Source: a phage. Taken from it: a DNA stretch of 767 nt. Position 1 is the first letter of the stretch, and each line of letters opens with the position of its first letter. Below are positions 1 through 767 of the stretch, piece by piece. The notes beneath the pieces are model-generated. The model was not told the origin of the DNA, searched no databases, and saw only the letters and a program-made list of their open reading frames with translations. The stretch lies in sequence record MK836293.1. One strand, 5' to 3'. Made by a program: the position numbers and the translations under genes.

Positions 1-767
1 ATGAACAGCCCGACCGGCCAGGTATTCGCACTGCGCGCAGTATATGGTAAAGACCCCATCGCTTCCGGTGCTAAAGAAGCATTCCATCCAATGTATGGTC
101 CAGATGCAATGTTCTCTGGTCAGGGTGCTGCTAAGAAATTCGCTGCTTTGAAAGCAAGTGATACTCTTGAAGTTGGAACTATTTACACCCACTTCTTCCA
201 GGAAACTGGTACTGTATATCTGCAAGCTACAGAAGTTAAGCAAATTGATACTAGTGCATCTGACGCAGCTAAATTAGATGCTGAAATTAAGAAACAAATG
301 GAAGCTGGTGTACTGGTAGAAATCGCTGAAGGTATGGCTACTTCTATCGCTGAACTTCAGGAAGGTTTCAACGGTTCTACCGATAACCCATGGAATGAAA
401 TGGGCTTCCGTATCGATAAACAAGTTATCGAAGCTAAATCTCGTCAGCTGAAAGCTGCTTACTCTATCGAATTAGCACAAGACCTCCGCGCTGTTCACGG
501 TATGGATGCTGATGCTGAACTGTCTGGTATTCTGGCTACCGAAATCATGTTGGAAATCAACCGTGAAGTTGTTGATTGGATTAACTACTCAGCTCAGGTT
601 GGTAAATCTGGTATGACCCTGACTCCGGGTTCTAAAGCTGGTGTATTTGACTTCCAAGATCCGATTGATATTCGCGGTGCTCGCTGGGCAGGTGAATCCT
701 TTAAAGCTCTGTTGTTCCAGATTGACAAAGAAGCATTTGAAATTGCTCGTCAGACCGGTCGTGGTGA
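1..767 (+). CDS. 23: Major capsid protein of a T4-type phage (gp23 family, HK97-like fold), internal fragment; partial at both ends, frame 1, 255 complete codons plus 2 nt of the next codon
   Basis: Seen in sequence: frame 1 is open across the whole window with no stop codons; the other + frames are interrupted (frame 2 has TGA at 2-4 and 152-154). Established knowledge: the translation matches, from memory, the T4 gp23 segment ...QPMNSPTGQVFALRAVYGKDP...IYTHFFQETGTVYLQ...NPWNEMGFRIDKQVIEAKSRQLKAAYSIELAQDLRAVHGMDADAELSGILATEIMLEINREVVDWINYSAQVGKSGMTLTPGSKAGVFDFQDPIDIRGARWAGESFKALLFQIDKEA.EIARQTGRG, collinear with no indels. The ATG at 1-3 is an internal Met, not the start; the true start, the prohead-protease cleavage site and the C-terminus all lie outside the window. 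Confidence 0.95.
   Translation, partial: MNSPTGQVFALRAVYGKDPIASGAKEAFHPMYGPDAMFSGQGAAKKFAALKASDTLEVGTIYTHFFQETGTVYLQATEVKQIDTSASDAAKLDAEIKKQMEAGVLVEIAEGMATSIAELQEGFNGSTDNPWNEMGFRIDKQVIEAKSRQLKAAYSIELAQDLRAVHGMDADAELSGILATEIMLEINREVVDWINYSAQVGKSGMTLTPGSKAGVFDFQDPIDIRGARWAGESFKALLFQIDKEAFEIARQTGRG

Follow-up and report, generated by a model that had tools for sequence, protein, structure and literature searches.

The insertion (I) domain of gp23, phage T4's major capsid protein, is a 60-residue globular unit that forms the bumps of the capsid surface (PMC9958956). Its loop at G201/A202 is flexible and solvent-exposed; a 9-residue insertion between these two residues was tolerated and was visible on the capsid exterior (PMC10229621, PDB 8GMO). 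The decoration protein Hoc binds gp23 at G326-R344 near the capsomer axis (PMC10385173), while N-fist and linkers of the I domain together build the Soc sites (PMC9546572). A 2023 paper on the evolution of the T4 virion (PMC10580926) covers gp24, Hoc and Soc stability and not gp23 sequence variation. Here, a 767-nt stretch of phage DNA (MK836293.1; 'the window' denotes this stretch at its full length) was analysed following an earlier note, made from the letters alone, which had reported a dense cluster of substitutions relative to T4 gp23. The patch is a well-sampled T2-type version of the exposed, variable surface domain of gp23, not a private burst of substitutions; it is ordinary and already known, because it is shared by T2 and more than 200 other sequenced phages and appears to have been spread by recombination.

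Frame +1 is open across all 767 nt of the window, which is an in-frame internal fragment of g23 (window aa 1-255 are equivalent to gp23 residues 117-371). Alignment with solved T4 gp23 chains (5VF3, 6UZC, 7VS5 and others) was gapless (E ~1e-151, 92% amino acid identity), and the PF07068 (Gp23) profile was matched with 190.5 bits (cut-off 24.4) over aa 1-255. At 92% identity to solved chains, an HK97-like fold with an inserted I domain is predicted for the encoded protein. Short overlapping ORFs on either strand were judged to be mechanical. The closest genomes, at 98.8% nucleotide identity and all Tequatrovirus, were those of Shigella phage Sf21, Yersinia phages PYps32T and PYps47T, and Escherichia phages 107, BW-1 and EPIMAM01. 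All of these have the gene order g22-g23-g24, a context that the window itself is too short to show. The window is a routine g23 fragment with the allele of the classical phage T2. At nt 736, a G to T change (codon 736-738, aa 246) results in V362F, which is private to the window: nt 708-767 were identical in 0/493 phage records, and residue 362 is V in 30/30 gp23 sequences of Tequatrovirus and Mosigvirus and A, V, N, S or T in other genera. V362F may be real and rare, or may have arisen through faulty sequencing or PCR.

For the comparison with T4, NC_000866 was used as reference. Window aa 47-60 (FAALKASDTLEVGT) aligned with T4 FPALAASTQTTVGD, the sequence that the earlier note had given for T4 and that both the reference and the solved chains confirmed. 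Its estimate of about seven differences in thirteen residues proved exact: at aa 48-60 (gp23 164-176, nt 142-180) P164A, A167K, T170D, Q171T, T172L, T173E and D176T were found. T4 gp23 is the same protein with the same length and has an identical I-domain core and Hoc site; over the entire 255-aa fragment 19 replacements were counted (236/255 identical), of which this patch (patch 1) holds seven and another cluster, at aa 77-87 (patch 2), holds eight. The clustering is non-random, as the probability that any 13-residue interval contains at least seven of 19 differences by chance was P = 6e-4 (200,000 permutations). Of the 65 nucleotide differences from T4, 29 were located in nt 142-189, where the permutation maximum was 15 (20,000 permutations), and 12 consecutive positions (nt 159-170) all differed; a one-codon register shift was considered as the source of this run and rejected, since by eye it did not convincingly lower the mismatches. 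The proposed extent of the cluster, nt 142-180, therefore holds for the changed residues and falls short for the DNA, whose divergent block reaches nt 189 and includes three further codons with synonymous changes only. Two such blocks differ from T4 by 54-60%, the remainder of the window by ~2%. Coordinates are compiled in Table 1.

Table 1. Features of the window (nt positions on the given strand) with supporting evidence.
Feature	Position	Strand	Evidence or remark
Gene 23 fragment (major capsid protein gp23)	1..767	+	Frame +1, gp23 residues 117-371 plus 2 nt; Pfam, T4 chains, g23 nt identity
I-domain linker 1 (gp23 aa 132-160)	46..132	+	Limits from PMC9546572; differs from T4 only by V136I and A138S
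Insertion (I) domain, ~gp23 161-221, hypervariable segment	133..315	+	Column entropy; PMC9958956; AlphaFold2 pLDDT
Divergent block 1 (gp23 codons 164-179), T2/Sf21-type cassette AALKASDTLEVGT-IYT	142..189	+	29/48 nt differ from T4
Conserved spacer, 39 nt identical to T4, encodes HFFQETGTVYLQA (core beta-hairpin)	190..228	+	No differences from T4
Divergent block 2 (gp23 codons 193-205), TEVKQIDTSAS-DA	229..267	+	21/39 nt differ from T4
Hoc-binding region of gp23 (G326-R344; window aa 210-228), comparison only	628..684	+	PMC10385173; aa identical to T4

Allele typing was performed with 27 full-length genes from Tequatrovirus and Mosigvirus, which fell into two types. The T2/Sf21-type has the pattern F-AALKASDTLEVGT in patch 1 and T-[EA][VA]-KQID in patch 2, the T4-type F-[PAT]ALAASTQ[TS][TVK]VG[DT] in patch 1 and [ST][AV][QV]V[TK]I in patch 2. 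The types show fixed differences at residues 167, 170-173, 196 and 197 only: K167, D170, T171, L172, E173, K196 and Q197 in the T2/Sf21-type, all seven of which are present in the window, versus A167, T170, Q171, T/S172, T/V/K173, V196 and T/K197 in the T4-type. Block 1 was found at ≥95% nucleotide identity in 216 phage records (204 full-length), and no record lay between 95% and chance-level matches; T2-type diversity within block 1 was 0.015-0.03 per nt. The T2-type segment spanning both blocks was present over most of its length in ~200 records, with T2, Sf21, RB27, AR1 and wV7 among the carriers, and the corresponding T4-type segment in ~432 records, T6 and RB69 included. In phage T2 and the Sf21/RB27/AR1/wV7 group, patch 1 is amino acid-identical to that of the window, with at least 58 of 60 nt in common with it; the end of block 2 reads DVGAS in T2 versus DTSAS in the window. 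Sf21 differs from the window by eight synonymous changes, in addition to the private V362F of the latter.

Variability across Straboviridae was analysed by column entropy in 56 loci from IMG/VR plus T4. In this sample, mean entropy was ~1.5 bits at window aa 43-108 versus 0.37 bits elsewhere, with a peak of 1.8 bits in patch 1 and low values in the spacer (nt 190-228) at F182, G186 and Q191. In homologues, indels immediately precede patch 1 and also occur inside patch 2 or past it, and megablast matches of distant genera to the window break exactly across nt ~133-297. The elevated variability among homologues that had been anticipated for the patch was thus found, yet it is a property of the whole I domain rather than of the patch alone. 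Comeau and Krisch reportedly mapped gp23 variability onto a gp24-based model in 2008. At the start of the I-domain helix just past block 2, phage EC.W2-1 (locus L064) has a 2-aa LD duplication after K207, and phage DalCa (locus L075) lacks 5 aa (DAAKL).

Linker 1 ends at residue 160 and the I domain of ~60 residues is next; therefore, patch 1 opens the I domain. Block 2 holds the positions equivalent to the exposed G201/A202 loop of T4 (nt 253-258). The earlier suggestion of a surface-exposed loop is accordingly borne out for the domain and for the partner patch, whereas for patch 1 itself (164-176) we infer, rather than observe, that it is oriented outward on the capsid. An AlphaFold2 model of the isolated 255-aa fragment was confident only for the I domain (pLDDT 77-89) and globally poor (pTM 0.34, TM 0.30 to T4 gp23, 5VF3), and was used for secondary structure only: patch 1 is predicted to be mostly loop with two short bridges, followed by a hairpin (strands aa 61-66 and 70-76), and patch 2 to be a loop followed by a helix (aa 89-102). 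Foldseek with aa 45-108 of this model returned non-significant matches to Vibrio chitin de-N-acetylase/chito-oligosaccharide deacetylase (E 0.6-1.5, ~44 columns, rmsd 3.6 Å). The insertion domain of T4 has been described as chitin-binding-like, which these weak matches echo. No Rfam family was found in the window and the fold of nt 120-210 was not better than that of shuffled sequences (z = -1.2), so that an RNA-level explanation of the cluster was rejected.

Between the two types, nucleotide divergence ranged from 0.26 to 0.56 over aa 160-179 and was 0.40 over aa 190-199; in the rest of the gene it equalled divergence within types (~0.00-0.11), which makes the segment a sharply bounded island. 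Codons encoding the same amino acid in the window and in T4 differed synonymously in 8/9 cases in block 1 and 4/5 in block 2, versus 26/475 elsewhere (Fisher p = 6.5e-13); between T2 and T4 the figures were 9/15 in the blocks versus 9/476 elsewhere, and between Sf21 and T4 pS was 0.80 in patch 1, 0.70 in patch 2 and 0.083 outside the I domain. Saturation of silent sites in a gene that is otherwise ~2% diverged goes beyond what selection on point mutations produces, and the blocks are therefore old, separately evolving segments. Block 2 co-segregates with block 1, and the strictness of this co-segregation could reflect co-adaptation beyond close linkage. The spacer between them is a likely crossover site. 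T2 and Shigella phage sb3 (locus L082) are mosaics that mix different block 1 and block 2 variants, and within codons 164-179 sb3 switches from T2-type to T4-type and back to T2-type, so conversion tracts can be put at ~15-20 nt. The edges of block 1 in sb3 are T2-type (GCT GCT TTG ... GTT GGA ACT ATT TAC ACC) and its centre is T4-type (GCT GCT AGC ACA CAA), together with a novel SK pair.

Exchange also appears to have crossed genus lines, since the T4 I domain is closer to that of Mosigvirus (dS 0.24) than is the rest of the gene (dS 0.52). In one group of Straboviridae loci (L008, L025 and L053) patch 1 reads FAAVKA[SA]DVLTVGT; T2-type patch 1 is 62-77% identical to it in amino acids and 64-67% in nucleotides, T4 46% and 41%, respectively. 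Because the T2-type is nearer to other genera than T4 is, the T4-type may, judged from these sequences, be the derived form. No donor lineage for block 1 was found by sensitive blastn of the phage collection or in the 56 IMG/VR Straboviridae loci, where the nearest block 1 from outside Tequatrovirus had just 64-72% nucleotide identity, and import is hence indistinguishable from retention of an ancestral allele.

These results are best explained, with good though not full confidence, by two anciently diverged cassettes in Tequatroviruses that have been moved by recombination and re-surface a weakly constrained capsid bump. The two alternative cassettes would circulate among these phages in an otherwise nearly identical gene and would pass from one phage to another by homologous recombination via the conserved flanks and the 39 conserved nucleotides between the blocks. 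On the capsid, they would alter the surface of the bump by bringing three charged residues into each block at a constant net charge of -1, and would leave the assembly-critical domain core, the linkers and both decoration-protein sites (Hoc, Soc) unaltered. Such variation would be tolerated because constraint on the loops is weak. While the I-domain location, the hypervariability, the two discrete alleles, the sharp edges of the blocks, the saturated silent sites and the mosaics are observed, spread by recombination and near-neutrality of the cassettes are what we infer.

Several other readings of the cluster were weighed against these two recombining cassettes. An artefact, in which the T4 reference was misquoted or the sequence contains sequencing or assembly errors, has a next to negligible probability: the window does carry the private G736T elsewhere and is identical to no database record, but the T4 reference was correct and the patch is 100% nucleotide-identical to many independent genomes. 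A contact with a decoration protein, as the earlier note had proposed, is unlikely, and co-evolution of the patch with a contacting Soc or Hoc is scarcely credible. It could be argued that the linkers help to form the Soc site, that patch 1 begins only four residues past linker 1 and that Soc occurs in several deeply divergent classes among phages. However, the patch (164-176) lies outside the Hoc-binding site, which is unchanged in the window (aa 210-228), and the Soc sites are ascribed to N-fist and linkers rather than to the globular I domain, in which patch 1 is located. Moreover, Soc classes assort independently of the I-domain allele: T2-type gp23 is found with T4-like Soc (G50, U115, CHD94UKE2, EPIMAM01) and with ~47%-identical Soc (NBG2, Nami, UTI-E2), and T4-type gp23 in both Soc classes (T4, RB18 and T6 versus Ozark). 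Co-evolution with a decoration protein is largely refuted by this missing co-variation. Across T4-like coliphages, Soc was ≥95% identical to that of T4 in 289 records, 80-90% in 69 and ~46-57% in many, and some copies were truncated. The blocks might also be the target of a homing endonuclease such as SegD, in which case the changes would be a co-conversion scar or would confer immunity at the cleavage site, on the pattern of T2/T4 marker exclusion. The clustered changes strike synonymous as hard as nonsynonymous sites, segD is located between g23 and g24 in T4 and RB18, and T4 endonucleases cleave T2 sequences, with local gene conversion as the result (PMC2988022), all of which would fit. We nevertheless regard an endonuclease target as very improbable, given that most T4-type phages examined (RB3, RB33, teqskov and REP3 included) have g24 directly after g23 and no segD, that the blocks are ~1 kb away from the segD insertion point, that they match protein loops which are variable in every genus, segD-less genera included, and that the 2010 review lists the SegD target as unknown and its expression as thought to be very low (PMC2988022). 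An association between allele and endonuclease would be expected, yet the T4-type allele is common in segD-less phages. Among the fetched loci, T4 and RB18 alone had segD, in antisense orientation between g23 and g24 (L001 8562-9233, L069 2168-2567); the other Tequatrovirus loci have g24 directly 3' of g23, and Mosigvirus has a small hypothetical ORF there.

Selection was assessed by dN/dS from parsimony counts on region-specific trees. Omega was ~0.64 in patch 1 and 0.53 in patch 2, compared with 0.08 for the stretch separating them and 0.05 outside the I domain; in the patches it is thus roughly tenfold the gene background, yet below 1, and constraint is roughly ten-fold weaker there. Residues 171, 173, 195, 203 and 220 showed many replacement and few silent changes, none individually significant, and such counts are inflated by recombination. 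Given the tenfold dN/dS and these five residues, some positive or balancing selection at the patches is possible. Diversifying or frequency-dependent selection, in which antibodies or a bacterial defence sensor recognise the capsid surface and the alleles form a balanced polymorphism, is as a full explanation rather unlikely. In its favour, two deep, discrete alleles on a homogenised background are a classical signature of long-term balancing, patch dN/dS is about ten times that of the gene background, the changes exchange charged residues on a surface domain, and each allele is common (~200 versus ~430 records). Yet regional dN/dS is <1, across more than 200 phages the T2-type block hardly varies, which speaks against an arms race still under way at this site, and an old segment moved by recombination gives the same pattern neutrally. 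The diversifying selection put forward in the earlier note therefore found no backing: omega was below 1 in both patches, synonymous sites are saturated and the allele hardly varies. With regard to possible recognition, gp23 is, unlike Hoc and gp12, a weak immunogen in mice after oral dosing (PMC4576206), and among the papers retrieved none connected a defence system with the gp23 I domain. The bNACHT25 paper, in which T4 gp23 failed to activate bNACHT25, does not mention the I domain, and neither does the TAC paper, in which gp23 appears in a folding context only. Balancing can be put in a more specific form, which we hold to be a little less probable again: the cassettes would be a long-lived balanced dimorphism with co-adapted blocks (over the pair of changes each acquires, in total, one K and two acidic residues, net charge -1), and frequency-dependent recognition by a capsid-binding factor (antibody, mucosal ligand or bacterial capsid sensor) would keep both common across Tequatrovirus and Mosigvirus.

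The capsid-surface segment is dimorphic and weakly constrained, and the feature is its common T2-type cassette, which is present in hundreds of public genomes; neither fresh diversifying selection nor contact with a decoration protein can be read from the cluster. It has little direct consequence, as the insertion domain is already known as the exposed, variable and engineerable part of gp23. On the other hand, g23 is a widely used phylogenetic and diversity marker, and two 40-50-nt blocks with a separate recombinational history will distort distance-based typing of Tequatrovirus: since g23 of T2 and T4 is near-identical outside the blocks (9/476 silent), marker distances within the genus are dominated by ~90 nt of recombining sequence. 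For T4 capsid display, the two natural alternative sequences at residues 164-176 and 193-203 complement the engineered G201/A202 insertion site.

Two described systems resemble this locus. T2/T4 marker exclusion likewise involves short, very different tracts in near-identical genes and recombinant mosaics (PMC2988022); here, by contrast, no endonuclease is tied to the segment. The insertion domain of T4-superfamily major capsid proteins is, as in the window, the most variable part among gp23 homologues, as seen for PhiM9 versus T4 (PMC4621102), and it forms a bump on the surface, with a loop that is flexible and solvent-exposed (PMC10229621). In contrast to the E-loop insertion domain of the superfamily, where divergence is graded, the variation described here lies within one genus and takes the form of two discrete cassettes.
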